DNA from: Clostridia bacterium
Lineage (GTDB): Bacteria; Bacillota; Clostridia; Oscillospirales; CAG-272
Assembly (NCBI GenBank): GCA_024404505.1
Contig: JAKSPU010000001.1
Span: 8,375 to 72,374 of the forward strand
Direction: 5' to 3'
DNA length: 64,000 nt
The notes under the pieces were generated by a model, which had not been told where the DNA came from, made no database searches, and worked only from the letters and a program-made list of their open reading frames with translations. Numbering within the stretch: the first letter of the stretch is position 1; every line of letters begins with the position of its first letter. Of the stretch, positions 13,769 to 35,979 are shown in pieces. Both the position numbers and the translations under genes were made by a program.

Positions 13769-13788
13769 GGTAGGTTTCCTCCTGTATA

Positions 13789-15195
13789 TCAGAAATCAAG
13801 GTCTTCGGGGTTGAATATCTTCTTTTCCGTTGCGGGGACTTCTTCGGTCTTTTTCTCGGCGGCGGTGGGCGCCCAGGCGTCTCCTTCGTCGTCGTCACCG
13901 TGCTTCAGCGTGACCGCGCTGCCGACCACCTGCTCAAAGGTGGCCTCCGGGTTCTGCATGAGGATGTTCAGCACGGTCATGTAGTCGCGCAGCATTTCGC
14001 GCGGTGTGATCATGCTGTCCGCGCCCGCGCGGGACAGGCACAGGTTGAGGAACGCAAGCTGCTCCTCGTCGGTGAGACGGACGTCCCAGTTATAATACTG
14101 CGCGTACAGCTGCGTGATGCGGCGGATGAGAGCCAGCAGCTCGTCGTCGGACAGACGGCGCAGGCGGATGACGGGTCCGATCAGATTCTTGAAGCCGTCC
14201 AGCGCGAAGCGGCTGTCACACAGGCGGGACCGAAGCGCCTCGTAGCTGAACAGCCCGCGCCGCGTGTCCTCGAGGAACTGCGGCGTCCCGCCGAACACGA
14301 TGCCGAGACCGGGCGCGCGGCCCTGCAGCGTATCGTTGAACATCGCAAGGATCTTCTCGTAGTTGTTCTCCCGGCTGACACGGTGCGCGATCTTGAAGAG
14401 GTTGACGCACTCGTCGATGAACACCATGAGGCCGCGGTAGCCCATGCGCTTAGACAGCGCCGCCCACAGCTTGAGGAAATCGTACCAGTTCTCGTCATCG
14501 ATGATTACGGACACGGCAAAGCCGAGGTCGTTCCGGGCTTCCGTTTTGGTGGCGTATTCACCGCGCAGCCAGCGCAGGCAGGCACTCATGCGGGTCTGGG
14601 ACGCTTCCCCGCCCTCCAGATACGCCTTGTAGTACGCCGTGATGACGCGGGAAAAGTCGAAGCCGCCGACGAGGAACTCCAGCTCGCGCATGGTCTCGCT
14701 GACCTTGGCGGACAGCTTGTCGGGGAACGAGGGATCGTCGGCAGACACGCCGCCGCAGATCAGCTCGTCCTGCATCTGACCGATCCAGCGGGCGATCAGG
14801 CGCGGCAGCGCACCGCCGTCAGGCGATGCCTTGGAGGCGAGATTCTTCATCAGCTCGCGGTAAGTCGCCACACCGGACCCACCGGAGCCGTACAGACGGC
14901 GCTCGGGGGACAGGTCGGCGTCAGCCGTCAGGAAGTCACGCTCCAGCGCGTAGCCGCGGATCAGCTGGATCAGGAAGCTCTTGCCGGACCCGTAACGGCC
15001 GATCAGAAAGCGCATGGAGCCGCCGCCGCTGTCCAACATCTCAAGGTCGGAAAGCAGCGCGGCGATCTCATCCTTACGCCCGATGGCAATGTAGGGTGCA
15101 CCGGCGCGCGGCACGACGCCGGCGGACACCGACGACAAAAGGGATCCCAAGATCCGGCGGGGGACCTTGATCTGTTTTTCAGGATTCTGGGGCAT
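13789..15195 (-). CDS. P-loop ATPase, DUF2791 / BrxD-like
   Basis: Walker A GRYGSGKS and Walker B LMVFIDEC. The N-terminal layout (VPRAGAPYIAIGRKDEI) and overall size match my memory of the DUF2791 family. Confidence 0.7.
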   Translation of the reverse strand: MPQNPEKQIKVPRRILGSLLSSVSAGVVPRAGAPYIAIGRKDEIAALLSDLEMLDSGGGSMRFLIGRYGSGKSFLIQLIRGYALERDFLTADADLSPERRLYGSGGSGVATYRELMKNLASKASPDGGALPRLIARWIGQMQDELICGGVSADDPSFPDKLSAKVSETMRELEFLVGGFDFSRVITAYYKAYLEGGEASQTRMSACLRWLRGEYATKTEARNDLGFAVSVIIDDENWYDFLKLWAALSKRMGYRGLMVFIDECVNLFKIAHRVSRENNYEKILAMFNDTLQGRAPGLGIVFGGTPQFLEDTRRGLFSYEALRSRLCDSRFALDGFKNLIGPVIRLRRLSDDELLALIRRITQLYAQYYNWDVRLTDEEQLAFLNLCLSRAGADSMITPREMLRDYMTVLNILMQNPEATFEQVVGSAVTLKHGDDDEGDAWAPTAAEKKTEEVPATEKKIFNPEDLDF

Positions 15196-15223
15196 ATCTT
15201 ATCACCCTTTCTGTTTTCCGCCG

Positions 15224-17104
15224 TCAGACCTTCAACGCCTGACGGACAAGTTCACGGTAATCTTCAAGTACGGTATACACGCCGTCTCCGCGATCGTCGA
15301 GGATCACGTCCCCGACCTCGCCGTCGGCCGTGATCGCGTTGATCTCCTCGGCAACGGCATCGGGCATGGTGCGGCGGCTGACGGCGAACGCGCGCTGCCC
15401 GGGACCGTCCTCGTTCAGCGCCATGCGGACGAAGGTACACAGCTCGCCGAGCGCGTCAGCCAGCGAGACGGACGCGGGTGCGTCCGGCAAGGTGTCCTGT
15501 TCAGCCGGGAGCGGCTCCCTTGGGAGCGGCTCCACGTCCGGTACGGGATCCGCAGCGGGAACGGGTACGTCCTCGGGGACGCTGTCCTCTGCCCCGAACG
15601 CGTCGGTCAGGATGCGGGTGGTATCCCACGACGAGCGCTCGATAGCATCGGCATCCGCCAGCGTCACCTGCTTCTGCGGCAGGTCGTACAGCTTTTCGTA
15701 GGCCGGTGCCGGCTCGTCCTTTTTGGGAGCGGACAGCGGCTGGGTGGGCGCGAACGGACGCAGGTATACGTCCACGGCGTCCCGGACAGGGATCGGCAGC
15801 GTCAGGATGGACAGCCGCGACCGTACACCGATCCAGCCGCGGATGCGGTTCTCAACGTGCTTGACCACGTCCCCGATCAGGAAGCGGAATTCGTGGGAGC
15901 GTGAAAAGGACGTATAGGACACGGTGATGCGCCGCTTGTTGCGGTAGGCGCAGAGGGCGCCCGTATAGGCATCACGCGTGACGGACGAGTCCTGCATCGT
16001 GATCAGCGGGGCCTGACCGTTCCGCCCGAGCAGCAGCGGCAGGATCGCCGCCACGGCGCCGGGAACGAGCTTGTCAAACATCGGCGCCTGCTCGCCCTGC
16101 GCGAATTTGCTTTTGTGGTAATCATACTGACAGCAATGCCGCAGGAGGATGCGGGCGCTCTCAAGGTCGTGGCTGTCCCCCGTGACCGCGGCGGTCAGGT
16201 AGAATTCCTTGAGCCGGCTCATCTCGATGATGTCGCCGAGTGCCGGCATCAGGCGGTCCACAGGCGCGTTCAGGCGGTGGATGAGGCAGTAGTCGCACAG
16301 CCACTCGCACATATAGTGGTCAAGCTGGGGGTACCGCTTGCGGTAAGCGATCCAGACATCGGCCATGCGGTCACGCGCAGCGGCAGCCTCCGCGTCGTCG
16401 GCGGGCAGATTGATCAGCTCGAACAGGTACAAGAGGATATAAGCGTAGTCCGTATCCGGGTATTCCCCGCCGCGGACAGCCTCGCGCCAGCGCAGATACC
16501 ACGCCGTTTGTCCCTGCGTGAGCTGGGCATACTGAGGCAGGAAGGAGAAGAACGACTCCCGCCGCGCGGACTTATCCGACGGCTTCCGAGCCGCGTACCG
16601 GACCGCGTCGTGGGCAAATTCGTCAAAGTAATGGAAATTGGATCTCCACTCGTACACGCTGACCTTATGCAGCAGCACGCCGTCCGGCACGTACTCGAGG
16701 CACGGCGAATCCATCTGTGCCTCGTCCGCCGTGTGAGGCGGGACGAAGTGCGGCGTACCGCGGTCAACGGACAACGGGCGGTCACCTCGCGGGGCCGAGG
16801 AAGCACCGTACGGATTCGGATTGTCCTTCGGCGCCGTCCTGAGCGGCTGATCCGGACGGGCGGACGGATAGTCCTCCCGGCGGACGGTCAGCGGAACGGC
16901 GGCGACGGTGTCCTCCGCCGCGGGCGGACGTTGGTCAAGCTCGACCTCGACCGCCGACGGCGGGGTCTGCGCCGGACGGACGACGATCCGGGACGGACGG
17001 GAGCCCGGCAGAAGGTTTTCCACGTTCCAGAAGTCGTCCAGCTCCTTTTGGCGCGCTCGATCTCCGATCGTATCTTCGATCGCAGCGTTTTTCTTTTCCT
17101 GCAT
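15224..17104 (-). CDS. TerB-N / TerB-C domain protein
   Basis: ATG at 17104 after AAAGGAGGAAAAAA; the longer ORF to 17173 has no RBS. TerB-N-like FFSFLPQYAQLTQGQTAWYLRWREAVRGGEYPDTDYAYILLYLFELINL. TerB-C-like C-terminus MPDAVAEEINAITADGEVGDVILDD..YTVLEDYRELV. Confidence 0.7.
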   Translation of the reverse strand: MQEKKNAAIEDTIGDRARQKELDDFWNVENLLPGSRPSRIVVRPAQTPPSAVEVELDQRPPAAEDTVAAVPLTVRREDYPSARPDQPLRTAPKDNPNPYGASSAPRGDRPLSVDRGTPHFVPPHTADEAQMDSPCLEYVPDGVLLHKVSVYEWRSNFHYFDEFAHDAVRYAARKPSDKSARRESFFSFLPQYAQLTQGQTAWYLRWREAVRGGEYPDTDYAYILLYLFELINLPADDAEAAAARDRMADVWIAYRKRYPQLDHYMCEWLCDYCLIHRLNAPVDRLMPALGDIIEMSRLKEFYLTAAVTGDSHDLESARILLRHCCQYDYHKSKFAQGEQAPMFDKLVPGAVAAILPLLLGRNGQAPLITMQDSSVTRDAYTGALCAYRNKRRITVSYTSFSRSHEFRFLIGDVVKHVENRIRGWIGVRSRLSILTLPIPVRDAVDVYLRPFAPTQPLSAPKKDEPAPAYEKLYDLPQKQVTLADADAIERSSWDTTRILTDAFGAEDSVPEDVPVPAADPVPDVEPLPREPLPAEQDTLPDAPASVSLADALGELCTFVRMALNEDGPGQRAFAVSRRTMPDAVAEEINAITADGEVGDVILDDRGDGVYTVLEDYRELVRQALKV

Positions 17105-17193
17105 AGGCTTTTTTCCTCCTTTTCCCCGCCGTCCGGCGGACGCGCGGACGGCAAAACTCCGGTGCGGCGGCACCGGTCGGTCTGTATCATATT

Positions 17194-17483: not shown

Positions 17484-17592
17484 GTATCAGCCGCGGGAAC
17501 GCTCACGCGCCGTGCGGCCCATGTGGGGAGCGGGTTTGCCTTGCCGCCTGCCCCATATCCAAATCAAGCAAAGAAACGGGGGATGAATCGTT

Positions 17593-19233
17593 ATGATGAA
17601 CGAAGACCAGAACATGGATCGGGACAATGACATTCTGCAAAGCAGCGCCGATCAGACGGAGACCGTCCGCATCGACACGGAAAGCACGGTTCACCCGCCC
17701 GAACGTGATCCGGCTCATGAGCCGGATACCGACACCGCGGACGCCGGGCTGACCGACAACAGCCTTACCGACGACAGCATCATCGACAGCGAGGTCGAGG
17801 CCGCCGCCGAAGAGATCCAGAAGGAAGTGGACGAGGATCTTCCCACCGAATTCGAGCAGCACGAGCAGGTGATCGAGAACACCTTCGAGTGCCTTGTCGA
17901 CCTGCTTGACAGCCGCCACTACGTTGATTTCCGCCGGGCGCTGGAGGACCTGCAGCCCGTCGAGGTCGCGGACTTCTTCACCGAGCTGCCCGCCGCGCGG
18001 ATCCCGACCGTATTCAAGCTGCTGACCAAGGATCAGGCAGCCGACGTGTTCGCCGAGCTGGAGGTCGAGGAGCAGCAGCGAATCATCGACGCCATGACCG
18101 ACCGAGAGATCGCGGTCATTCTGGAAGACCTCGCACTCGACGACGCGGTCGATATGCTGCAGGAGCTGCCTGCCAGCATCGTCCACCGCATCATGAAGAA
18201 CACCACGCCCGAAACGCGGGCCGACATCAACCGCCTGCTGGCGTACCCCGAGGATTCCGCCGGCAGCGTCATGACCGCCGAATTCATCGACCTCAACCGC
18301 AGCATGACCTGCGCGGAGGCCGTCGATCATATCCGCAGGACCGGTATCGACAAGGAGACCGTGTACGTCGCGTACGTCACGGATTCCTCCCGCGTGCTGC
18401 AGGGCATCGTTCCTCTCAAGAAGCTGCTGTTTGCCAAAGAGGACGAGCTGATCAGCGACATCATGGACGAGAACATCATCTGCGCGTCCACGCTGGACGA
18501 CCAGGAGACCGTCGCGTCCATCATTTCCAAGTACGATATGCTGGCTCTGCCCATCGTGGACCGCGAGCATCGCCTCGTCGGTATCGTCACGGTCGACGAT
18601 GCCATGGACGTCATGGAGACCGAGGTCACCGAGGATATCGAAAAGATGGCCGCAATCGTGCCCTCCGACAAGCCCTACCTCAAGACCGGTGTGTTCGAGA
18701 CGTGGAAGCAGCGCATCCCGTGGCTGCTGCTCCTGATGGTCTCCGCGACCTTTACGTCCACCATTCTCGGCCATTTTGAGGACGCGCTGTCCAAGATGGC
18801 CATCCTGACCGTCTTTATCCCCATGCTGATGGACACCGGCGGAAACGCGGGCGGTCAGACCTCCGTCACCATCATCCGCGGTCTGTCCCTTGGCGACATC
18901 GAGCCCTCCGACATCATGCGGATCATCTGGAAGGAATTCCGCGTGTCGCTCTTGTGCGGTCTGTCCGTCGGCATCGTGTGCTTCATCAAGACCATGCTGG
19001 TCGACTTCCGGCTCGCGTTTACGGCAGACAACGTCCGCACCTCTCTCGTGGTGTGTCTGACCATCTGCATCGCCATCATGATCGCCAAAATGATCGGTTC
19101 CCTGCTGCCCGTTGGCGCCAAGAAGCTCGGGCTTGACCCGGCTGTCATGGCCAGCCCGTTCATCACGACGATCGTTGACACGCTGACGCTGCTGCTGTAC
19201 TTCACCGTGGCCAAGACCTTCCTGCCGCTGTAA
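17593..19233 (+). CDS. mgtE: Magnesium transporter MgtE with acidic N-terminal extension
   Basis: MgtE N-domain, CBS pair (DIMDENIICAS...IVDREHRLVGIVTVDDAMDV), membrane domain with DTGGNAGGQTS. Confidence 0.9.
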   Translation: MMNEDQNMDRDNDILQSSADQTETVRIDTESTVHPPERDPAHEPDTDTADAGLTDNSLTDDSIIDSEVEAAAEEIQKEVDEDLPTEFEQHEQVIENTFECLVDLLDSRHYVDFRRALEDLQPVEVADFFTELPAARIPTVFKLLTKDQAADVFAELEVEEQQRIIDAMTDREIAVILEDLALDDAVDMLQELPASIVHRIMKNTTPETRADINRLLAYPEDSAGSVMTAEFIDLNRSMTCAEAVDHIRRTGIDKETVYVAYVTDSSRVLQGIVPLKKLLFAKEDELISDIMDENIICASTLDDQETVASIISKYDMLALPIVDREHRLVGIVTVDDAMDVMETEVTEDIEKMAAIVPSDKPYLKTGVFETWKQRIPWLLLLMVSATFTSTILGHFEDALSKMAILTVFIPMLMDTGGNAGGQTSVTIIRGLSLGDIEPSDIMRIIWKEFRVSLLCGLSVGIVCFIKTMLVDFRLAFTADNVRTSLVVCLTICIAIMIAKMIGSLLPVGAKKLGLDPAVMASPFITTIVDTLTLLLYFTVAKTFLPL

Positions 19234-19257
19234 AAAGTGCATAAAAGGAGTTCCGAT

Positions 19258-19662
19258 ATGACGCAGGTAGTGGCAGCCCTGATCCGCGACCGCGGGGCGG
19301 GGACCTTCATGATCTGTCAGCGGCCGGCGCACAAGGCGCGAGGGCTGCTCTGGGAGTTCGTCGGGGGCAAGATCGAGCCCGGGGAAACGGGACAAGTGGC
19401 GCTGATCCGCGAATGCCGCGAGGAGCTGGGGATAGAGGTGGCCGTCGGCGCGGTGTTCTGCGCGGTGGACCACGTCTACCCGGACATCACGATCCGCCTG
19501 ACGCTGTACGAGGCGGAGATCGCGTCGGGCGAGCCTCAGCTGCTGGAGCATAACGATCTGCGCTGGATCACGCCCGCGGAGATCGGGCAGTATGAGTTCT
19601 GCCCGGCAGACGAGGACATTCTGGCGTTGATCACGGACAGATACGAAAAAGGGACATGGTAA
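19258..19662 (+). CDS. NUDIX hydrolase (MutT-like)
   Basis: ATG at 19258 after AAAAGGAG. Nudix box GGKIEPGETGQVALIRECREELGIEV. Confidence 0.85.
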   Translation: MTQVVAALIRDRGAGTFMICQRPAHKARGLLWEFVGGKIEPGETGQVALIRECREELGIEVAVGAVFCAVDHVYPDITIRLTLYEAEIASGEPQLLEHNDLRWITPAEIGQYEFCPADEDILALITDRYEKGTW

Positions 19663-19668
19663 AAATAC

Positions 19669-19705
19669 AGCCCGCACCGGCAAACGCCGGTGCGGGCTTT
19701 TTGTT
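19669..19705. terminator. Bidirectional terminator between the NUDIX gene and the giant lipoprotein gene
   Basis: 13-bp stem AGCCCGCACCGGC / GCCGGTGCGGGCT with loop AAAC. T-run downstream and A-run upstream. Confidence 0.85.
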
Positions 19706-19719
19706 GTTTGGGGATACGG

Positions 19720-22700
19720 TCAGGAGAGAGTGTAGCCCCAGACGACGGGACAGTTGAAGGGGTTCCAATCGTCGGACCATCCGGAAGGCTGGGAGGTGGA
19801 TTCGCAGTAGATGGTCAGGTTGGGGCAGTTGTAGAACGCATAACCGCCTATGCTCGTCACGCTGTTTGGAATCGTGACGTTCTCCAAACCAGTGCATTCA
19901 AAGAAAGCATAATCACCGATGCCCGTCACTTTCTCGCCCACAGGGGATACGTTCGGGATCACCACATCTGTATCCGTGCAGATACCGATTCCACTTATAT
20001 AACAAGTACCGTCGCAATTTGAAGTAAACTCAAGCAGGCTACTATTGGCGTTTCCTCCGCAACGAGTACATATACCATCGACAAATGTATGCCCCAACGC
20101 AGATATATCTTCTTGCTCAATCTGACCGCAGATACGGCATACTGATTCCAAGCAGCCTTCACAAATACAGGTCGGCTCGAAAACGACTTCGCTCTCCCAC
20201 TCATGATCCGGCTTCGAGTAGACGATCAGGCCGTCACTACAGTAGATGTACACGAAGACAGCGTGCTCCATGCCCTCGGCCAGCTTATAGGTGAACGGCA
20301 TCGCCGCCCACTGTGCCTTCGTGCCGAGGTAGTCGAACTCCTGCATGAAGCCGTATCCTACAACGGTCAGCGTCCCTGTGACGGTCACGGATTCGGGGAT
20401 CTCAAACTTCACCTGCTGGACGGACATGACCTTCGCGTCGATCTCAAGCACCGGCAGGCCCTTGTACAGCTCCGGCACGACGGCCGCGTAGGTCTTGGAG
20501 GTCCCGGGATTCGGATGCGTGTACTTGACTAGGATATAGCCCGTTCCGGCATCGTTCAGTTTGAAACTCAGCGCGGGGCTGATCACGGGCGCGGGCCCGT
20601 CGGAGCAGGTCACGCTGCTCGCGGGCACAAACGTCCCCATAGAAGGATAGCAGCTTTCAAACTGAAGACTACTCCACTGCTGTCTGGTACCTTCGTAGAT
20701 CACAGGCAGCATGGTACCCGTGCCGACGTCGAAAGCGTAGTCGCCGATCGACGTGACCGTGGTCGGAACGGTGATTGAGGTGATCGGACATTCATCATGA
20801 TAATACTGCTCACACAGACCGGCTGCGATCCCGGTCACGATATCCCCGTCCGGAGAAACGGACGGGATGACGATATCGTGATCGGTGCAGCTCATGAGGC
20901 CGGTAAGCGTGCAGGTGCCGTCACCGTTGGAGGTGAACTCAAGGCCCTTACTGCCGGTGTGATAATTCCACACGACCGGGCAGTCGGAGGGGTTCCAGTC
21001 CGTGTTCCAACCGCTCGGCTGGGACGCAGCACGGCAGAGGATAGTCAGATCCTTACAGCTGGCGAATGCGTCCGCATCGATCGAAGTCACCGAAGCAGGG
21101 ATCTCGATGCTCTTCAGAGCGGTGCAATTCAGGAACGCGTTTTTGCCGATACCGATCACGGTATCCGGGATATTCACGTCGGTCAGGGACGTGCAGCCCT
21201 GGAAAGCACCGAGTCTGATCTGCGTCAGCCCTTCGTTCAGGGTGATCGTCGTCAACTTGGTACAATTGCAGAAAGCATAATTGTTGATCCCCGTGACGCT
21301 GTCCGGGAGCGCAATGGTTTCGATGTCGGCGCAGTTATAGAAAGCGTAGGTGCCGATGACCTTCACACTTCCGTCATCCGGGATCACGCTGTTTCTGCAG
21401 CCCGTCAGGAGCGTACCGGTCGATTTTTCGATGAGGCAGTTCCCGGCGCTGACGTAATACGCGTTATCGCTGCTTACTTGAATGTTTTGCAGATAACGTC
21501 CGACACAGAAGGCGTATTTTCCGATATTCGTAACGCTGCCCGGAATGACGACACTCCGCAAGTTGGCCCTGTTGAAAGCGTAATCGCCGATCGTTGTCAG
21601 ACCCTCGGGAAGCGTTACACCGGTCAGTTTCGCGTTGTCCCGGAATGCGTTCTCACCGATGCCCGTCACGAGATCGCCGGAGGGAGAGTATTGCGGTATC
21701 ACGAGATCGGTATCCGTGCAGGTGCCGATGCCGCTGACATAGCAGGTCCCGTCGCCGTTGGAAATAAACTCAAGAATCTCTGTGATGATCTGCTCACCGC
21801 AGCGCGTGCATTTGCCGTCAGCGCCGACGTCATGTCCGAGCGCGGGGATCACGGTCCGCTCGATAACGACGGCACCGCAGACCGTGCAATGGCTGCCCTC
21901 CGTCAGGCCGTCCTCGGTGCAGGTCGGAGCCACGGCGGGATCGGTCACGAGCGTGTGACCGAGTGCGGGGATAACTGTCTGTTCAGCCGTCACTTCTCCG
22001 CAAACGGAGCAGTAAGCGTCTTCAGTCAGACCCTCTTCGGTGCAGGTCGGAGCTGCGGCAGGCGTAGTCACGAGCGTATGACCCGAAGCGGGAATATCGA
22101 TCTGCTCAACCAGCACGCTGCCGCAGATGCTGCAATGCACACCGGCAGTCTTGCCGGGAGTCGTACAAGTGGCTTCCACAGCCGGATCCTCGACCTGCGT
22201 ATGGCCGAGTGCGGGGATAACGATCTGATTGACGACGATCTCACCGCAGACCGTGCAGCGGCTTCCTTCCGTCAGGCCCTCTTCGGTGCAGGTCGGAGCC
22301 ACGGCGGGATCGGTCACGAGCGTGTGACCGAGCGCGGGAATGACCTCCTGCTTTACGAACACCTCACCGCAGACCGCGCATCTGGAGCCTTCGGTCAGAC
22401 CGTCCGCCGTGCAGGTGGGCGCAACAGCCGCATCGATCTGAGTGATATGTCCGCCGGCGGAGGAAATGACCTCGCCGCAGACCTCGCACACCTGATCTTC
22501 GGTGCAGGTCGCGTCCGGCCCTATCGTATGGCCCTTGGCGGGAATGACGTTCTGGGGAATAAGCACTGTGCCGCAGACGGAGCAATGTTGCCCTTCGGTC
22601 TTGCCGTCCTCGGTACAGGTCGGAGCTACGGCGGGGTCGGTCACGAGCGTGTGACCGAGCGCGGGGATAACTTTCTGTTCGGCAGTCACCTCTCCGCAGA

Positions 22701-25700
22701 CGGAGCAGTAAGCGCCTTCAGTCTTGCCGTCCTCGGTACAGGTCGCAGAGACAGCCGGAATGACTTCCTCGGTGTGGCCGAGTGCGGGGATCCCGGTCCG
22801 CTCGGTGACGACAGCGCCGCAGACCGTGCAATGGCTGCCTTCCGTCAGGCCGTCCTCGGTGCAGGTCGGAGCCACGGCGGGGTCGGTCACGAGCGTATGA
22901 CCGAGCGCGGGGATAACTTTCTGTTCGGCAGTCACCTCTCCGCAGACGGAGCAGTAAGCGCCTTCGGTCTTGCCGTCTTCTGTGCAGGTCGGAGCCACGG
23001 CAGGCGTAGTCACGAGCGTGTGACCCGAAGCGGGGATTTCGATCCGCTCAGCCAGCACGCTGCCGCAGGTGCTGCAATGCACGCCGGCGGTCTTGCCGGG
23101 AGTCGTACAAGTAGCTTCCACAGCCGGATCCTCGACCTGCGTATGGCCGAGTGCGGGAACGACGATCTGCTTGACGATGACCTCACCGCAGACCGCGCAA
23201 TGGCTTCCTTCCGTCAGGCCCTCTTCGGTGCAGGTCGGAACGACAGCCATATCCGTTACGATCGTATGACCGGCGGCAGGCAGGACCTGCTGCTTCGTAA
23301 AGACCTCACCGCAGGTCGTGCAGTGCGAGCCTTCGGTCAGACCGTCTGTGGTACAGGTGGGTGCAACGGCTTCATCGATCACGACCGTGTGACCCAGCGC
23401 CGGCAAAATCTCGCGCTTGACGATGGTCGTGCCACAGACGGCGCAGTACGTACACTCGGTAACACCGATGGACAGACAGGTCGGCTCCCTGCCGGGCTCG
23501 GTCACGAGCGTATGCCCTCTGGCAGGCAGGATCTGCTGTCCCTTGATGACCTTGCCGCAGGTCGCGCAGTGCGAGCCTTCGGTACGGCCGTTCTCGGTAC
23601 AGGTCGGGGCTGCGGCGGGATCGGTCACGATCGTATGATCGAGCGCCGGAATATCAGCCTGAAGGAAGAGGACGGCGCCGCAGACCGAGCAATGGCGGCC
23701 TTCCGTCTTACCCATTTCGGTACAGGTCGGAGGCACGGCGGGATCGATGACAGGAGTGTGTCCGAGCGCGGGAATGGTCTTCTGCGCCGTGAATATTTCA
23801 CCGCAGACCGCGCAGTGGCTGCCTTCGGTATTGCCGTCATCGGTACAGGTCGGGGCGACCTCGGGATCGGTCACAGGCGTATGACCGAGCGCGGGAATGA
23901 CCTCCTGCTTTACGAACACCTCACCGCAGACCGCGCATCTGGAGCCTTCGGTCAGGCCGTCCACCGTGCAGGTGGGTGCAACAGCCGCATCGATCTGAAT
24001 GATATGTCCGCCGGCAGAGGAAATGACCTCGCCGCAGACCTCGCAGACCTGATCCTCGGTGCAGGTCGCGTTCGGGCCCAGCGTATGGCCCTTGGCGGGA
24101 ATGACGGTCTGGGGGATAAGCACGACGCCGCAGACATAGCAATGTCGGCCTTCGGTCTTGCCGGGCTCCGTGCAGGTAGGCTCGACAGCCTTGTCGACAA
24201 CAATCGGATGTCCGGCTGCGGGCAGGACTTCTCTCGGGGTAAGGATCGCGCCGCAAACGGTGCAGTAAGAGTATTCCGTCACGCCGATGGACGAGCAGGT
24301 CGGCTCTACGCCGGGCTCCGTCACGATCGTATGACCGAGCGCCTCGCGGACCTCCTGTCTGACTAGAACCTCACCGCAGACACAGCAGTGAGAGCCCTCG
24401 GTAAGACCGGTCCCGGTGCAGGTCGGCTCGACCGCTTCATCGGTCACAGCCATGTGTCCGAGTGCGGGCACGATGCGTGCTTCCTCAAGAGTGATACCGC
24501 AAACCGCGCAGTAAGCTCCTTCGGTATGTCCGTCCGTGGTGCAGTCGGGGTCGACCGCCTCGTTGATGACGATGGTATGCCCGAGTGCCGGGATAACGTC
24601 CTGAACCGTGAAAACGGTGCCGCAGACCGCGCAGCGGCTGCCCTCTGTCCGGCCCGTTTCGGTGCAGGTCGGCGGGACGGCGGGATCGGTCACGAGCGTG
24701 TGGCCGAGTTTTTCAATGATCGTTTGTTCCTCAAGTATGGTACCGCAGACGGCGCACACGGTGCCGGCGGTCTTGCCGTCCTCAGTGCAGGTCGGCTTGA
24801 TTTCGGGCAGTATCGCAGGCGTATGTCCGCGGGCGGGCAGGACCTCCTGCGCCACCAGGATCTCACCGCAGACCTCGCAATGCCTGCCCTCGGTCAGGCC
24901 GTCCTCGGTGCAGGAAGGTGCGGCAGCCGGATCGATCACGACGGTATGGCCCGTGGCGGGAATGACCTCCTGCGTCTTGAACACGAAGCCGCAGACGCTG
25001 CAATGCAGGCCTTCGGTCTTGCCGGGAGCCATGCAGGTCGCTTCGACAGCCTCGTCCACGACCTCGGTATGACCGAGCGCAGGCAGGACCTCCTGCGGAA
25101 CAAGCACCTCACCGCAGACCGCGCATCTGGAGCCTTCGGTCAGACCGGTCTCGGTACAGGTGGGAGCGACAGCTGCGTCGGTCTGGACGATATGTCCGCC
25201 GGCGGACGAGATGATCTCTCCGCAGACCTCGCAGACCTGATCCTCCGTGCAGGTAGCATCGGGACCCAGCACGTGGCCGTGGGCAGGGATGATGGTCTGT
25301 GCCTCGAACACAACGCCGCATGCGGAGCAGCGGGAACCGGCAGTCCGACCGGGCTGCGTGCAGGTAGGCTCGACCGCCTCATCTGTCACGATCGTATGTC
25401 CGAGCGCCGGGATCGGCTCCTGCTCGGCCAGCACAAGATCGCAAGCCGCGCACACGGCGCCGTCCGTCATACCGTCCTCGGTACAGGTAGCCGCGTAGCC
25501 GGGGATCGCCAGGGTCTGGTGACCCTTCGGCGGGATCGCCTGCTGAGCGGTCAGCGTCTCACCGCAAACCGTGCAGATGCTGCCGTCCGTGACACCTGCT
25601 TCCGTGCAGGTGGCCGGTTTCCCTTCCGTTCTGACGGCTGTATGGCCGAGTGCGGGTATCTCGGCAGCCTGCTCGGTCACAGCACCGCAGACGGTGCAAT

Positions 25701-26289
25701 GCGAGCCGCCGGTAGAGCCGGGCTTGGTGCAGGTAGCGGCGACGTCATCATCGGGCGCCGGCGTATGTCCGAGTGCGGGCAGGATCTCGCCCTCCTCGAC
25801 CACGATACCGCAGAAGGAGCAGTGCGTCCCGCCCTTATGGCCGGGCTCGGTACAGGTGGCGGCGGTATTGGCGGTGGACACGACGTTATGACCGGACGGA
25901 GCTATATCGCGCCATTCAGCCTCGCCGCAGGCACAACTGCGGACCTCCTGACCGGCGGTGGTACAGGTCGCTTCCGTGACCGTATGCCAGCTGCCGTAGG
26001 AGTGGACGTGATCCGATCCGGTGTCCGGCTCGGTCTGGACCTCCGTATCAGCCTCGGAGTCCTCTTCAGCAGTCGACGGCTCGGTATCCGGCTCGATAGG
26101 GCGGGTCGTGACGGGCGTAGTCCGTTTCTCGGTGACCGGCTCGGTAGCGGGTTCGGTATCCGGCTCGATCGGCACGTCCGACTCGTCGAGCGTGATCACG
26201 GAAGGCCCGGGATTTATCAGACTGCATGACGACAGCATGAGTGCCGCCGCGCACAGGAGAGCAGCGAGTGCCTTTGCCTTTTTCCTCAT
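19720..26289 (-). CDS. Giant (2190 aa) surface lipoprotein: His/Cys3 41-aa repeat array plus BspA-type leucine-rich-repeat cassettes
   Basis: ATG at 26289 after GGAGG. Signal peptide MRKKAKALAALLCAAALMLSSC ends in a lipobox. 31 full and 3 short tandem modules. Three LRR cassettes with IPxSVTxIGxxAF repeats. Confidence 0.85.
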   Translation of the reverse strand: MRKKAKALAALLCAAALMLSSCSLINPGPSVITLDESDVPIEPDTEPATEPVTEKRTTPVTTRPIEPDTEPSTAEEDSEADTEVQTEPDTGSDHVHSYGSWHTVTEATCTTAGQEVRSCACGEAEWRDIAPSGHNVVSTANTAATCTEPGHKGGTHCSFCGIVVEEGEILPALGHTPAPDDDVAATCTKPGSTGGSHCTVCGAVTEQAAEIPALGHTAVRTEGKPATCTEAGVTDGSICTVCGETLTAQQAIPPKGHQTLAIPGYAATCTEDGMTDGAVCAACDLVLAEQEPIPALGHTIVTDEAVEPTCTQPGRTAGSRCSACGVVFEAQTIIPAHGHVLGPDATCTEDQVCEVCGEIISSAGGHIVQTDAAVAPTCTETGLTEGSRCAVCGEVLVPQEVLPALGHTEVVDEAVEATCMAPGKTEGLHCSVCGFVFKTQEVIPATGHTVVIDPAAAPSCTEDGLTEGRHCEVCGEILVAQEVLPARGHTPAILPEIKPTCTEDGKTAGTVCAVCGTILEEQTIIEKLGHTLVTDPAVPPTCTETGRTEGSRCAVCGTVFTVQDVIPALGHTIVINEAVDPDCTTDGHTEGAYCAVCGITLEEARIVPALGHMAVTDEAVEPTCTGTGLTEGSHCCVCGEVLVRQEVREALGHTIVTEPGVEPTCSSIGVTEYSYCTVCGAILTPREVLPAAGHPIVVDKAVEPTCTEPGKTEGRHCYVCGVVLIPQTVIPAKGHTLGPNATCTEDQVCEVCGEVISSAGGHIIQIDAAVAPTCTVDGLTEGSRCAVCGEVFVKQEVIPALGHTPVTDPEVAPTCTDDGNTEGSHCAVCGEIFTAQKTIPALGHTPVIDPAVPPTCTEMGKTEGRHCSVCGAVLFLQADIPALDHTIVTDPAAAPTCTENGRTEGSHCATCGKVIKGQQILPARGHTLVTEPGREPTCLSIGVTECTYCAVCGTTIVKREILPALGHTVVIDEAVAPTCTTDGLTEGSHCTTCGEVFTKQQVLPAAGHTIVTDMAVVPTCTEEGLTEGSHCAVCGEVIVKQIVVPALGHTQVEDPAVEATCTTPGKTAGVHCSTCGSVLAERIEIPASGHTLVTTPAVAPTCTEDGKTEGAYCSVCGEVTAEQKVIPALGHTLVTDPAVAPTCTEDGLTEGSHCTVCGAVVTERTGIPALGHTEEVIPAVSATCTEDGKTEGAYCSVCGEVTAEQKVIPALGHTLVTDPAVAPTCTEDGKTEGQHCSVCGTVLIPQNVIPAKGHTIGPDATCTEDQVCEVCGEVISSAGGHITQIDAAVAPTCTADGLTEGSRCAVCGEVFVKQEVIPALGHTLVTDPAVAPTCTEEGLTEGSRCTVCGEIVVNQIVIPALGHTQVEDPAVEATCTTPGKTAGVHCSICGSVLVEQIDIPASGHTLVTTPAAAPTCTEEGLTEDAYCSVCGEVTAEQTVIPALGHTLVTDPAVAPTCTEDGLTEGSHCTVCGAVVIERTVIPALGHDVGADGKCTRCGEQIITEILEFISNGDGTCYVSGIGTCTDTDLVIPQYSPSGDLVTGIGENAFRDNAKLTGVTLPEGLTTIGDYAFNRANLRSVVIPGSVTNIGKYAFCVGRYLQNIQVSSDNAYYVSAGNCLIEKSTGTLLTGCRNSVIPDDGSVKVIGTYAFYNCADIETIALPDSVTGINNYAFCNCTKLTTITLNEGLTQIRLGAFQGCTSLTDVNIPDTVIGIGKNAFLNCTALKSIEIPASVTSIDADAFASCKDLTILCRAASQPSGWNTDWNPSDCPVVWNYHTGSKGLEFTSNGDGTCTLTGLMSCTDHDIVIPSVSPDGDIVTGIAAGLCEQYYHDECPITSITVPTTVTSIGDYAFDVGTGTMLPVIYEGTRQQWSSLQFESCYPSMGTFVPASSVTCSDGPAPVISPALSFKLNDAGTGYILVKYTHPNPGTSKTYAAVVPELYKGLPVLEIDAKVMSVQQVKFEIPESVTVTGTLTVVGYGFMQEFDYLGTKAQWAAMPFTYKLAEGMEHAVFVYIYCSDGLIVYSKPDHEWESEVVFEPTCICEGCLESVCRICGQIEQEDISALGHTFVDGICTRCGGNANSSLLEFTSNCDGTCYISGIGICTDTDVVIPNVSPVGEKVTGIGDYAFFECTGLENVTIPNSVTSIGGYAFYNCPNLTIYCESTSQPSGWSDDWNPFNCPVVWGYTLS
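21838..25893 (-). repeat. In-frame coding tandem array: 31 units of 123 bp plus 3 units of 81 bp
   Basis: Unit consensus GHTxVxDxAVxPTCTExGxTEGSHCxVCGxVxxxQxxIPAL. I counted the units directly from the translation. Degenerate units extend the array to about 21770 and 26010. Confidence 0.9.
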
Positions 26290-26589
26290 CAATAATGCCT
26301 CCATCAAAATGAATATCCTTAGCGGATAGAATTGTCCACTATTTATAATACCATATTTTGAGGTCCAAGTCAACCCCTTACTGCATTTTTTCTTTGTGAA
26401 CGGAGGTCGTTTGCCGTTGTACACGGTCGATTTTCTCCGCGCCTCCGGGCGCGGAGAACGAAGAGGCATCCCGCGCTCGGGACCTTCCCCCTGCCCTCCC
26501 GTACGCGGGGAAGAGAGGAAGACCGGCGCTCTGCCGCCGGAAGCCGGGCGTTTCCGGATCGCCGGAAGTTCAGACTGACCTTTTCCCTC

Positions 26590-26837: not shown

Positions 26838-28295
26838 TCAGTCCATCACGGACGTCCCCTTCACGACGGCATTGACCTTCGCGGCGTCCGCCGTGGTGAC
26901 GCGCCCGTCGTCGAACATGACGTCCGCACAGGCCAGGGTATACCCGTAGACCTTCATAAGTCCCCGGGCACAGGAGTTGAGCATGGCTACGTCGACAGCT
27001 GTCAGCACGCCGTCTCCGTTGATGTCTCCGCGGATATTGACGGTCGCGTTCAGCAGGACGTCCCCGTCGACCGTCACCTCCAGCTCGCGGGCCACACGCC
27101 CGCCGCCGCTGATCGTCAGGACATACTGCCCGACCGGAATATGCTCAAAGGCATAGATGGTATCGCAGACGGCCATGGTCTCGTACCCCATGTCCCCGTT
27201 GAAGATGTATACGGTATCGCTCAGCGCCGTCACGGTCTGCCGGGCCGCGATCTCTCCGGTCCCCGCGTCCGTCAGCGTCATCACGATGGCTCCGTCGGGT
27301 CCGGGCGCGTTCACCGTTCCGAACAGGGAGAAGGTCCCCGGCTGGTCGTTCCAGCTCCAGACCACCTGACAATCGGACGGATTCCACCATTCGCTCCAGC
27401 CGGCAGGGGCGATCTCCGTCTCGCAATATAAGGTCAGCAGCACACACCCGGCAAAGGCATCGTCTCCGATGAACGCGGTATCCCTGCGTATCCCGATACT
27501 CACAAGGTCGGTGCAATCCGCAAACGCGGATTCACCGATGCGGCGGACGCCGCCCGGGATCACCGCACGGATCAGGCCGCGGCAGGCATAAAAGGCCTTG
27601 TCTCCGATCACCGCCACACTGCCGTCGTCGGGGATCTCGCTGTTCCGACACCCGGCCAGCAGCGTCCGGCTGCCGCGCTCGATCAGACAGTTGCCGGAGG
27701 CGCAGTAGACGGGATTCTGCTCGTCGACCGTGATCGAGGTCAGTCCGGAGCAGGCGGAGAAGGCCAGCCAACCGACATCGGTGACAGAAGCCGGGATATG
27801 CAGATCCGTCAGCGCGCTGCAGCCGTTGAAGGCGCCGGCGCCGATAGACACAAGTCCGACGGGAAGCTCCGCGCTTTCGAGGGACGTGCAGCCCTCAAAG
27901 GCCTCGGTCCCGATCACGGTCACGGTATCGGGGATCACGACGGACGTCATGCCTGTGCAGCCGCAGAAGGCGTAGTCTCCGATCGAGGTCACGCCGCGGC
28001 CGATCACGGCGGTCAGGACGGCGTTCCGATACGCGTCGTATCCGGGATCGTCCGGGTCGCCGCACCAGCAGGGATCCATTTCTCCGGACCCGCTGATGTA
28101 CAAAAGACCCGTGACGGACCAGAACGACCACGTCACGTTCGTGCCACAGGAGCCGCTCGCGGTAGGCGGAGCAGACGGCAGACCTGATATATCGTCTGCA
28201 CGGGCAGGAACGGCAGCCGGCATCAATGTCACGATCATCACGACCGCCAGAACGACAGCCGGCAGCTTATACGCGTTGCGGTCTGTATGCTTCAT
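26838..28295 (-). CDS. Secreted BspA-type LRR protein with C-terminal dockerin
   Basis: ATG at 28295. Signal peptide KLPAVVLAVVMIVTLMPAAVPARA. LRR units (IPDTVTVIGTEAF, IPASVTDVGWLAF and similar). Dockerin repeats DINGDGVLTAVDVAML and DVMFDDGRVTTADAAKV. Confidence 0.8.
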   Translation of the reverse strand: MKHTDRNAYKLPAVVLAVVMIVTLMPAAVPARADDISGLPSAPPTASGSCGTNVTWSFWSVTGLLYISGSGEMDPCWCGDPDDPGYDAYRNAVLTAVIGRGVTSIGDYAFCGCTGMTSVVIPDTVTVIGTEAFEGCTSLESAELPVGLVSIGAGAFNGCSALTDLHIPASVTDVGWLAFSACSGLTSITVDEQNPVYCASGNCLIERGSRTLLAGCRNSEIPDDGSVAVIGDKAFYACRGLIRAVIPGGVRRIGESAFADCTDLVSIGIRRDTAFIGDDAFAGCVLLTLYCETEIAPAGWSEWWNPSDCQVVWSWNDQPGTFSLFGTVNAPGPDGAIVMTLTDAGTGEIAARQTVTALSDTVYIFNGDMGYETMAVCDTIYAFEHIPVGQYVLTISGGGRVARELEVTVDGDVLLNATVNIRGDINGDGVLTAVDVAMLNSCARGLMKVYGYTLACADVMFDDGRVTTADAAKVNAVVKGTSVMD

Positions 28296-28495
28296 ACCAT
28301 TCCCCCCCTTCCCCGCCGCGCGGACGGCAGCGGACATTGCTTTGGATAGTCATCTATAGTGTATCATAATCTTTTTCAAAAATCAATCGGTTTCCGGGAA
28401 AATCCGAAAAAAATTTTCAACGGTGCAGAAGACGACTTGAATGCTAACAAATCCGGCTTTTTTCATGGCTTTTCCTATGTATCCGCCTTTATAGT

Positions 28496-35978: not shown

Positions 35979-35979
35979 A

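Follow-up and report, generated by a model that had tools for sequence, protein, structure and literature searches.

The minus strand of the window (the whole 64,000-nucleotide stretch of Clostridia bacterium DNA that was analysed) encodes a surface lipoprotein with about 36 copies of a small His/Cys3 repeat. We propose, with a probability of roughly 0.6, that these copies form a structural, probably zinc-stapled stalk of interleaved sites, each shared by two repeats, which projects a leucine-rich repeat (LRR) adhesin head. We infer the metal identity, the exact geometry and the rod length, and read the role as a stalk from the architecture of the protein alone.

Gene and domain layout

The long open reading frame between 19,720 bp and 26,469 bp (minus strand) was the only one there with sensible content. 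Its true start was the ATG at 26,289 bp, which gave a 2,189-aa product with the N-terminus MRKKAKALAALLCAAALMLSSC. The features of this locus, and one related feature elsewhere in the window, were as follows:

26,345–26,373, minus strand: promoter-like site TTGACT-17-TATTAT with a TG extended -10 (10/12 matches, consensus match only)
26,298–26,302, minus strand: Shine-Dalgarno sequence GGAGG, 8-nt spacer to the ATG at 26,289 (direct sequence reading)
19,720–26,289, minus strand: coding sequence of the 2,189-aa surface lipoprotein, stop codon included
26,224–26,289, minus strand: signal peptide with lipobox L-S-S-C, aa 1–22 (pattern recognised by eye in MRKKAKALAALLCAAALMLSSC)
26,014–26,223, minus strand: acidic Pro/Thr/Glu-rich linker PIEPDTEPATEPVTEKRTTPVTTRPIEPDTEPSTAEEDSEADTEVQTEPDTGS, aa 23–92 (translation)
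25,894–26,013, minus strand: N-cap unit with H94-x-H96, Cys109 and a C119-x-C121 knuckle, aa 93–132 (translation)
21,838–25,893, minus strand: main array of 31 x 41-aa and 3 x 27-aa His/Cys3 units, aa 133–1484 (translation, unit HMM)
21,790–21,837, minus strand: C-cap GHDVGADGKCTRCGEQ with His and CxxC but no Cys14 equivalent, aa 1485–1500 (translation)
20,209–21,789, minus strand: BspA-type LRR_5 modules and LRR-like middle region, aa 1501–2027 (Pfam LRR_5)
20,050–20,208, minus strand: second mini-array of one Cys-rich unit and the cap GHTFVDGICTRCGG, aa 2028–2080 (translation)
19,723–20,049, minus strand: C-terminal LRR_5 module, aa 2081–2189 (Pfam, translation)
19,669–19,698, no strand assigned: GC-rich 13-bp hairpin, terminator-like on both strands, directly past the stop codon
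42,040–42,156, minus strand: two stand-alone C-x-H-x8-C-x2-C-G motifs at the N-terminus of an OppA-like (SBP_bac_5) lipoprotein (motif logic)

The lipoprotein signal that the original prediction placed at the start of the protein was borne out by the lipobox, with Cys22 as the predicted lipidated residue. The Pfam search revealed LRR_5 at 7.6e-67 over four stretches (best at aa 1641–1748), and the region between aa 1501 and aa 2027 is a putative adhesive head. The C-cap is predicted to complete the site started by the Cys14 of the last full unit. The mini-array was matched weakly by the unit HMM (7.7 bits). The protein contained 145 cysteines from Met1, 104 of them in the array region, where more than 100 had been expected. 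The original prediction had overlooked the N-cap unit, which is a degenerate repeat, as well as the short H..CxxCG C-cap, the BspA LRR_5 modules and the mini-array with its cap.

The repeat unit and its relatives

Parsing of the translation showed that aa 133–1484 consisted of exactly 31 units of 41 aa and three of 27 aa (1,352 aa), in agreement with the coordinates first given for the array. All 31 long units contained His2, Cys14, Gly18, Cys25 and Cys28; Gly1 and Gly29 were kept in 30/31, and His24, correctly described as frequent, in 16/31. We regard His24 as the partner of Asp7 and not as a metal ligand. The invariance claimed for the four ligands nearly extended to the family: 150 very divergent proteins contributed 2,311 units, and of these 97.5% had H2 (the remainder being alignment gaps), 98.4% C14, 100% C25 and 99.8% C28. 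Conservation in the family fell mainly on these ligands and on Gly/Thr turn residues, with no conserved patch at the surface. Mean identity between units of the array was 55% for amino acids and 61% for nucleotides (range 46–97%), and each long unit scored between E 1e-16 and 1e-23 against an HMM built from the array units. The array is old and diverged with a few recent block duplications, and its reading as a low-complexity artefact was dismissed. The source is a metagenome-assembled genome and some blocks of the array were 93–97% identical, so the copy number could reflect mis-assembly.

Pfam and NCBIfam contained no model for the 41-aa unit, as had been supposed, and searches of PDB sequences and with Foldseek found no solved structure with a related fold. 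Yet the repeat is very common: the family comprised 26,576 protein clusters at E<=1e-10, hosted by gut and rumen anaerobes, and its partner domains were all extracellular (cohesin, dockerin, X25, F5/8-C, LRR_5, choline-binding, Big_1/2 and Flg_new). The similar strings that the original prediction ascribed to LRR proteins of gut Firmicutes do occur there. The unit was homologous to ZBD1/ZBD2 (PMC12237041), which are CTD2/CTD4 in PMC12415215, of the Thomasclavelia ramosa M64 IgA protease (hhalign 95.2% probability, E = 2.5e-8), and hmmsearch matched 9qa6_A at E = 0.001. On the basis of AlphaFold and SAXS, these domains were described in 2025 as putatively zinc-binding, with a possibly novel "periscope" fold (PMC12237041, PMC12415215). 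The description of the unit as unassigned thus holds for family models but not for relatives, since two short, divergent ones have been described. These domains do not amount to a confident match with an established family, because both papers present the IgA-protease fold as potentially novel and unvalidated (PMC12237041, PMC12415215).

Within the window, the unit HMM matched no real open reading frame besides the array gene. The motif at the N-terminus of the OppA-like lipoprotein, which the original prediction had called related, reads CEHVDADHDLKCDKCGADVPCAHVDENKDKKCDYCGAEV and was present as described but was not detected by the unit HMM; it is kin to the array unit by motif logic only.

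Proposed metal sites and stalk

AF2 models of four units (pLDDT 96.2) and of one unit with short flanks (pLDDT 93.6) were all-beta, and the strands fell at the same positions in each unit. Direct-coupling analysis of 1,518 two-unit segments (Meff 980) revealed that the strongest couplings were intra-unit and seen in both copies (7-24, 19-35, 5-24, 4-23, 3-27, 9-21, 6-21, 22-35 and 23-33); the coupling maps of the two copies correlated at r = 0.86. The 3-27 coupling implies that His2 adjoins the CxxC knuckle of its own unit. Between units, loop 11-17 coupled with residues 37-41, and residue 15 with residues 1 and 30 of the following unit. Among the 3,984 inter-unit pairs of the three-unit alignments (mean -0.11, sd 0.27), the top two were A15-B30 (2.16) and B15-C30 (1.80); the 15-30 coupling inside one unit was about 0 to 0.4. 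Charge pairing of E15 with K30′ was seen across the unit junction. The inter-unit couplings were modest (about 2) compared to those within units (3–9).

A Cys or His at position His-2 was found in 63 of 98 array-initial units (64%) and in 197 of 4,460 internal units (4.4%; p = 2e-56). Units without Cys14 ended their array in 221/319 cases. Where a full unit followed such a unit, position His-2 was Cys or His in 43/88 cases, compared to 7/3,593 after a normal unit (Fisher p = 8e-68). A downstream His and Cys element was present at 850 of the 885 array ends, only 35 being without one, and H..CxxC-type caps lacking Cys14 followed 209 of the 885. The window lipoprotein fits this compensation rule: its repeats open with H94-x-H96 and close with GH..CTRCG caps. 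The extra His-2 ligand was absent from 35/98 array-initial units, so three-ligand sites or use of a unit's own Cys14 must sometimes occur.

Covariation and the compensation rule argue that the sites are built across repeat boundaries, each probably comprising Cys14 of unit i and His2, Cys25 and Cys28 of unit i+1; the ligands of adjacent sites would then be interleaved along the sequence. This geometry is a prediction that draws on covariation and sequence logic rather than on model distances. The original prediction had placed all four ligands within one 41-aa unit, which probably does not hold as phased. A self-contained zinc knuckle, with each unit binding one metal through its own His2, Cys14, Cys25 and Cys28 as an independent bead on a string, is nevertheless the most straightforward way to read the invariant positions, and it agrees with the high pLDDT of the single unit and with nearly all strong couplings being intra-unit. 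However, residues flanking Cys14 coupled to the flanks of the next unit's His2 and knuckle and showed no coupling to those of their own unit in the direct-coupling analysis. The self-contained knuckle, which we consider unlikely, also offers no explanation for the [C/H]-x-H N-caps, the terminal units and caps that lack Cys14 or the compensation rule, and published models of the IgA protease place its putative metal sites at subdomain interfaces (PMC12237041).

On the preferred reading, the gene product would be a gut Clostridia surface protein of the fibrillar-adhesin or "periscope" type, running from an N-terminal lipid anchor through a flexible acidic Pro/Thr linker and a rod of ~36 small all-beta modules to BspA-type LRR heads. 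Each module would be a three-stranded antiparallel sheet (strand A 3-7, strand C 21-25, strand D 30-35), with the Cys25-x-x-Cys28-Gly knuckle at the C-D turn and His2 adjoining. The Cys14 loop would run alongside residues 37-41 to the His2/Cys25/Cys28 cluster of the next module, giving a tetrahedral Cys3His site, most likely for Zn2+, shared by two consecutive repeats. The metal would replace a hydrophobic core and disulfides, the latter being unlikely on the outside of a strict anaerobe, and would stiffen the junctions such that the array becomes a continuous rod. At the N-terminal cap, [C/H]-x-H would give the otherwise absent ligand; at the C-terminal cap, the H..CxxC element without Cys14 would take the last Cys14. 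Extrapolation from the homologous ZBD1 (129 residues), which is about 110 Å long (PMC12237041), suggests a rod in the order of 100 nm, and CTD2 was a fully extended rod by SAXS (PMC12415215). The distal LRR heads would do the binding, kept away from the cell by the rod, which fits the fibrillar-adhesin layout of an adhesive domain distal to the anchor (PMC8286594).

Alternative readings and known systems

Were the metal sites functional, they might act as a store, buffer, sensor or Fe redox centre, or switch stalk extension or cell-cell adhesion through zinc as in SasG/Aap. This is suggested by the about 38 predicted sites per molecule, by the speculation in the PNAS paper that zinc may regulate CTD2/CTD4 function (PMC12415215) and by the weak top Foldseek matches, which were the Zn-dependent SasG/Aap rods. 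We judge it distinctly improbable, however, as full Cys/His tetrahedral coordination is typical of tight structural zinc and, by the argument made for the homologue, leaves no open position for bridging (PMC12415215). Sites spaced by about one module (roughly 3-4 nm, extrapolated) would be too far apart for electron transfer, and the repeat was found with many unrelated functional heads, as expected of a generic spacer. As another reading, the repeats could themselves bind ligands, such as host glycoproteins or other bacteria, and be more than a spacer. Their surface positions do vary strongly (55% mean identity), and one paper mentions stalk domains of some other adhesins that were later found to bind receptors (PMC12415215); but conservation falls on the ligands and turns, and the C-terminal ZBDs of the IgA protease were dispensable for substrate cleavage and even hampered it in vitro (PMC12237041), which makes adhesive repeats very unlikely.

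Disulfide-bonded or redox-active cysteines, with no structural metal site, would suit a Cys-rich extracellular protein, and there was weak likeness to Kazal-type inhibitors (ovomucoid E = 5.8e-5, three-unit profile) and laminin-type EGF. The unit shares with Kazal domains the local string P-x-C-x-x-D-G-x-T-x-x-x-x-C-x-x-C, but the score came from summation (per-domain E about 1), and Kazal domains require six Cys, paired in three disulfides, and follow CxxC with a helix, whereas the unit has a strand at that point; the resemblance was judged to be convergence of a short pattern. Each unit has an odd number of Cys, three, plus an invariant His, and the Cys/His swap at the cap position suits a metal ligand and not a disulfide. 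The hosts are gut and rumen anaerobes, and the homologous IgA protease showed no disulfides although it has 24 Cys (PMC12237041). We therefore regard this reading as extremely unlikely.

The preferred reading, a metal-stapled stalk, was compared with known systems. The T. ramosa IgA protease has 3 + 2 irregular subdomains with other domains between them, a C-terminal sortase anchor and a protease head, whereas the window lipoprotein has ~36 regular 41-aa Cys3His units that run without interruption as one array between defined caps, together with an N-terminal lipid anchor and LRR heads; the metal is putative in both. Most IgA-protease sites were assigned as His2Cys2 and not Cys3His in the PLoS Pathogens paper (PMC12237041), which indicates that ligand usage varies in the family. 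The G5-E modules of SasG/Aap, the staphylococcal periscope rods, are likewise tandem, elongated, single-layer beta-sheets that lack a classical hydrophobic core and serve to project a surface protein. Unlike the array unit they have no Cys, and their Foldseek matches were non-significant (TM at or below 0.26, no sequence similarity). According to a published summary, G5-E zinc is intermolecular, has His/Asp/Glu ligands and drives dimerisation, and is not an intramolecular staple (PMC12415215).

The original prediction had likened the ligands to a Zn-ribbon or knuckle-like set. The His/Cys3 set was upheld, but a classical two-knuckle ribbon was not: many Zn-ribbon Pfam models touched the knuckle weakly, none was significant per domain, A24_N_bact passed the Pfam cut-off only through summed repeats and Foldseek gave no fold match. 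The unit resembles zinc ribbons and knuckles in its four Cys/His ligands and in the CxxC-Gly knuckle that occupies a beta-hairpin turn, but has one knuckle and two isolated ligands and is extracellular. As in cross-braced fingers (RING, PHD, C1, FYVE), the ligands of neighbouring sites would be interleaved; unlike in these, the interleaving would repeat indefinitely along a tandem array. The C-terminal half is bona fide LRR_5, as in BspA-like LRR proteins. Its overall layout, an anchor followed by a repeat stalk and then a binding domain at the far end, is that of fibrillar adhesins (PMC8286594), from which the lipoprotein differs in a stalk module absent from the Pfam-modelled stalk families and in an anchor that is a lipobox and not LPxTG.

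Organisation of the repeat protein

The repeat region was contained within a single long minus-strand ORF (19720..26469) with the following features, located by window position or by residue of the protein.

26373-26345, minus strand: promoter-like TTGACT-17-TATTAT with an extended -10, upstream of the ATG
26302-26298, minus strand: Shine-Dalgarno sequence GGAGG, with a spacer of 8 nt to the ATG
26289, minus strand: ATG, the likely start codon of a 2,189 aa product
Protein start: signal peptide MRKKAKALAALLCAAALMLSSC, ending in lipobox L-S-S-C (pattern-level reading)
aa 23-92, minus strand: flexible acidic Pro/Thr/Glu linker
aa 93-132, minus strand: degenerate first unit (N-cap), opening H94-V-H96
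21838-25893 (aa 133-1484), minus strand: main array, 31 units of 41 aa and three of 27 aa
Directly after the last unit, minus strand: short cap GHDVGADGKCTRCG
aa 2028-2080, minus strand: second mini-array with cap GHTFVDGICTRCG
Most of aa 1501-2189, minus strand: BspA-type LRR_5 modules (Pfam PF13306; E = 7.6e-67, 223 bits against a gathering cut-off of 27.7, four stretches)
19698-19669: GC-rich 13-bp hairpin just past the stop codon

The number, lengths and position of the units in the main array matched the original prediction exactly. The degenerate first unit, the short cap, the second mini-array with its cap and the LRR_5 modules are additions to that description. The lipoprotein signal was also recovered, the lipobox LSSC at the N-terminal signal peptide being the predicted cell-surface anchor at the level of a pattern match. 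In total, 36 consecutive units (aa 93-1500) separate the linker from the LRR modules. The LRR_5 modules, for which an adhesive role is putative, lie distal to the anchor, which is where fibrillar adhesins have their adhesive domain (PMC8286594). Two very long antisense ORFs were found opposite the array, 20797-24366 (plus strand, 1,189 aa) and 24388-26229 (plus strand, 613 aa). Both were rejected as genes, since they are shadow ORFs, rich in Arg, Gly, Asp and Ala, that the GC-rich repeat gives rise to; so was the ORF at 17503-19683 (minus strand), a compositional shadow ORF that had no Pfam match.

Alignment of the 31 long units showed that His2, Cys14, Gly18, Cys25 and Cys28 (numbering within the 41-aa unit) were invariant, and the repeat region contained 104 Cys residues, where more than 100 had been predicted. 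On average, two units were identical in 55% of their amino acids and 61% of their nucleotides. Blocks of units were more alike: units 23-26 and 31-34 shared 85-93% nucleotide identity, units 15-17 and 28-30 shared 76-97%, and each 27-aa variant was always accompanied by the same neighbouring unit. The block-duplication record as a whole covers units 5-7, 15-17, 23-26, 28-30 and 31-34. The array thus appears to have grown by block duplication and, judged from its sequence, to be old and under selection, neither a recent expansion nor an artefact. The copy number of 34 units, which comes from a metagenome assembly, should be taken with some caution because the near-identical blocks (93-97%) are where short-read assembly could collapse or expand copies.

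Distribution, homologues and annotation of the unit

A word-indexed search returned 806 relatives from Clostridia MAGs, all of them unnamed or annotated as "hypothetical protein". An exhaustive HMMER search, in which a three-unit profile was run against 1.84 billion cluster representatives, revealed 41,111 proteins at E<=1e-3; the count fell to 26,576 at E<=1e-10 and to 10,340 at E<=1e-30. The longest protein of the family was 7,169 aa and the maximum was 48 units per protein; the dominant period in the 150 best proteins was 41 residues. The ligand set that had been predicted from the 31 long units was conserved across 2,311 near-full-length units of these 150 proteins at 97.5-100%: His2 in 97.5% (the remainder being alignment gaps), Cys14 in 98.4%, Cys25 in 100% and Cys28 in 99.8%, with Gly18 in 99.9%. 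The partner domains were extracellular without exception and comprised cohesin, dockerin, pullulanase X25, F5/8 type C, LRR_5, choline-binding repeats, Big_1, Big_2 and Flg_new.

A survey across gut Clostridia had been suggested in the original prediction; a scan of species-representative genomes gave 180 loci, mainly from gut and rumen sources. These loci fell in Lachnospiraceae, Oscillospiraceae, Ruminococcaceae, Acutalibacteraceae, Christensenellaceae and Erysipelotrichaceae, and the repeat also has carriers in culture, among them Anaeroplasma bactoclasticum, Cuneatibacter caecimuris DSM 29486 and Ruminococcus turbiniformis. A few repeat loci were in bins labelled Bacteroidales (L011, L018) or archaeon (L054); these are probably mis-binned Clostridia contigs, the alternative being horizontal spread.

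No model for the unit was found in Pfam-A (2025 copy) or NCBIfam (2026), in line with its description as unassigned in the original prediction. The only Pfam match over its cut-off on the repeat region was A24_N_bact, the prepilin peptidase N-domain (43 bits), which exceeded it because weak CxxC matches were summed over the repeats; its best stretch was the last unit plus cap (21790-21960, minus strand), in which two CxxC motifs have a chance spacing of 22 residues. Both A24_N_bact and EGF_LMN_ATRN passed gathering thresholds by such summed matches, as seen on the window protein and on homologues P0005, P0029, P0256 and P0133, and PF06750 is already precomputed on many homologues. These labels are a systematic false annotation of the repeat proteins. 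Homologues also drew sub-significant Zn-ribbon, C1, FYVE, LIM, Kazal and laminin-EGF matches centred on the knuckle. Kazal, laminin EGF, HIPIP and the prepilin-peptidase N-domain were all rejected as assignments, the matches being short and CxxC-centred or summed repeat scores. For the Kazal-type inhibitor the alignment was confined to the C3..C4xxC5 string with a per-domain E of ~1, and the unit has three Cys rather than six in three disulfides.

The original prediction had described the unit as Zn-ribbon or knuckle-like. The CxxC knuckle stood; the classical (rubredoxin-like) ribbon was rejected, as there is one CxxC per unit and the other two ligands, a Cys and a His, each stand alone. Zn-ribbon family matches on homologues had no individually significant stretch or covered only 10-15 residues at the knuckle, and Foldseek gave no match.

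A search of PDB sequences with a single segment as the query gave nothing significant, only Kazal noise. A relative surfaced only when the three-unit profile was used (hmmsearch): residues 854-973 of 9qa6_A, the Thomasclavelia ramosa IgA protease, matched at E = 0.001, and residues 1103-1143 gave another, weak match. Alignment to this segment with hhalign gave 95.2% probability (E = 2.5e-8), and the His and Cys columns coincided. On this sequence evidence the unit is detectably homologous to ZBD1/ZBD2 of the protease (PMC12237041), termed CTD2/CTD4 in PMC12415215. The repeat is therefore unassigned, as predicted, with respect to database models but not undescribed, short divergent homologues having been published in 2025: the ZBD/CTD2-type periscope domain is defined in the literature and has no database model. 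CTD2 is a fully extended rod by SAXS (PMC12415215), and ZBD1 has 129 residues and is ~110 A long (PMC12237041). The published models of the homologue have tetrahedral sites with a putative metal and it is without disulfides (PMC12237041). A metal measurement or experimental structure of CTD2/CTD4 is found in neither 2025 paper nor in the EMBO J paper on the enzyme, and none of the three covers long tandem arrays or says how large the family is. Literature on the unit itself, sought by motif strings and generic terms, was not found, and stalk domains with zinc or cysteine go unmentioned in two surveys of fibrillar adhesins. The window array is an extreme and very regular form of this recently noticed, unmodelled kind of domain.

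Composition of the putative metal site

Structure prediction, which had been proposed earlier, gave confident AF2 models of the unit (pLDDT 96.2 and 93.6) that were all-beta, with three main strands per unit; evidence on an inter-unit site came from covariation. Like ZBD/CTD2, the window unit is predicted to be a small three-stranded antiparallel beta-sheet placed end to end and without a fold homologue, and Foldseek against the PDB returned no fold relative at E<=0.001. Mean-field direct-coupling analysis of 1,518 two-unit segments (Meff 980) independently recovered the strand pairings A-C and C-D. The top couplings were intra-unit and repeated in both copies (7-24, 19-35, 5-24, 4-23, 3-27, 9-21, 6-21, 22-35 and 23-33; r = 0.86 between the two intra-unit maps), and define a three-stranded sheet of order A-C-D. 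As residue 3 coupled to residue 27 inside the Cys25-x-x-Cys28 knuckle, His2 is likely to be near the knuckle of its own unit. No coupling was seen in this analysis between the Cys14 loop and its own His2 or knuckle region. Residues 11-17 coupled to 37-41, and residue 15 to positions 30 and 1 in the unit that follows. When three units were aligned, A15-B30 (2.16) and B15-C30 (1.80) ranked first and second among 3,984 inter-unit pairs (mean -0.11, sd 0.27), compared with an intra-unit 15-30 coupling of 0.0-0.4. The pairing of 15 with 30' (the prime denoting the following unit) included an E15/K30' charge swap.

The strongest covarying pair of the family was Asp7/His24, with Ile/Val/Leu7 and Lys24 as the alternative state (D/H in 936 segments versus I/V/L + K in 316); aa 1136/1153 are an example in the window protein. 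His24 had been noted as frequent, which it is (16/31 long units), but it was rejected as a ligand as it switches to Lys24 together with position 7. The pair lies as surface side chains on the A-C sheet, and may serve to sense pH or, as a second shell, to stabilise the site.

Analysis of array ends gave three independent sequence tests that agree. Cys or His was present exactly two residues before the conserved His (His-2) in 63/98 array-initial units, defined as those without Cys in the 50 residues upstream, versus 197/4,460 internal units (p = 2e-56). A full unit lacked a following full unit in 885 places; an H..CxxC cap lacking Cys14 followed in 209 of these, His with other Cys patterns, including long units with Cys14 replaced, came next in 641, and a downstream His + Cys element was missing in only 35. 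The array ended after a Cys14-less unit in 221/319 cases, and where a full unit did follow a Cys14-less unit it had Cys or His at His-2 in 43/88 cases, against 7/3,593 after a normal unit (p = 8e-68). The simplest explanation is that each His2/Cys25/Cys28 cluster draws its fourth ligand, Cys14, from the unit before it and that, where this Cys14 is absent, the residue two positions before the His takes over. The window protein fits this rule: HxH opens the array, and the caps at the two array ends lack Cys14. A further likeness to ZBD/CTD2 would be the location of tetrahedral Cys/His sites at subdomain interfaces, to which couplings, the compensation rule and caps point indirectly in the window unit.

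We propose that the window protein is a lipid-anchored fibrillar adhesin in which the flexible acidic linker would be followed by ~36 modules and by LRR_5 heads at the distal end. A Cys3His metal site common to neighbours would clamp each junction, such that the ligands of adjacent sites interleave along the chain. On a wider reading, the 41-aa unit would be the canonical type in a very large family of extracellular modules of gut and rumen Firmicutes for which there is no model, each metal ion being shared by two consecutive repeats to give a continuous cross-braced, "zinc-stapled" rod of ~100 nm; we put this reading as a whole somewhat below even odds, at about 0.45. The length of the 1,408-residue array is an order-of-magnitude extrapolation, scaled from ZBD1.

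Of the metal-binding H/C3 set originally predicted, conservation sustained the ligands, but a self-contained site within one unit is disfavoured by the covariation and compensation statistics, by which the site would span two repeats. Pairing of the Cys residues as disulfides is likewise disfavoured, given their odd number, the invariant His, the interchange of Cys and His at the cap and a homologue without any. Zinc is the most likely metal since it suits the ligand set and the geometry of the knuckle, tetrahedral sites are present in the homologue's published models, and disulfides are implausible with an odd Cys count in strict anaerobes. A functional role of the metal (in storage, in redox chemistry or as a zinc-dependent switch) and binding of ligands by the repeats themselves are possible alternatives, neither of which had specific support.

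Surface proteins with this module number in the tens of thousands in gut and rumen Clostridia; they include adhesins, components of cellulosomes and amylosomes, and an IgA protease that is of therapeutic interest. Domain databases do not recognise the module, and its annotation is blank or wrong (for example, A24_N_bact or laminin EGF). The analysis reveals the canonical form and scale of the family, offers a testable ligand-sharing rule with defined caps and flags the systematic mis-annotation. The window protein, being unusually long and regular with clean caps, is a good template for a family model, and also a good subject for showing the metal and inter-repeat coordination. A cross-repeat site, if real, would explain how strict anaerobes can make extracellular rods that are long and rigid yet need neither disulfides nor isopeptide bonds, and would tie commensal surface display to gut zinc availability. 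The zinc-stapled rod, if correct, would be a new structural principle among bacterial stalk proteins; extracellular folding and stiffness would depend on available zinc, and host zinc withholding could therefore collapse the adhesins of many commensal Clostridia.

Neighbouring loci

The genes surrounding the adhesin gene were as follows.

12449-13768, minus strand: GH39-like protein
13789-15195, minus strand: BrxC/BrxD-family ATPase (PF10923, 3.5e-152)
15224-17173, minus strand: TerB_N-domain protein
26838-28337, minus strand: LRR_5 and dockerin protein, 499 aa (BspA LRR_5, 3e-37; C-terminal type I dockerin, 1.2e-4)
33801-35987: fused double ABC ATPase, adjacent to the OppA-like gene
35980-38292: OppC-like permease, adjacent to the OppA-like gene
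39439-42243, minus strand: OppA-like SBP_bac_5 lipoprotein, 934 aa, with two stand-alone motifs right after the lipobox

The LRR_5/dockerin gene is immediately upstream of the adhesin gene, and the adjoining position of this second LRR_5 protein suggests a local surface-adhesion gene pair, which may be a surface-display pair of a cellulosome-type organism. The related motif reported in the OppA-like lipoprotein was present as two copies of C-x-H-x8-C-x2-C-G (42040-42156). These resemble array-initial units, with Cys at His-2 and no preceding unit, and so also fit the compensation rule; the unit HMM did not detect them. Downstream of the adhesin gene, the GH39-like, BrxC/BrxD ATPase and TerB_N genes (12449-17173, minus strand) may form a small defence islet. 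The neighbouring ClpB was MCQ2428711.1, a record of the Clostridia MAG GCA_024500545.1.
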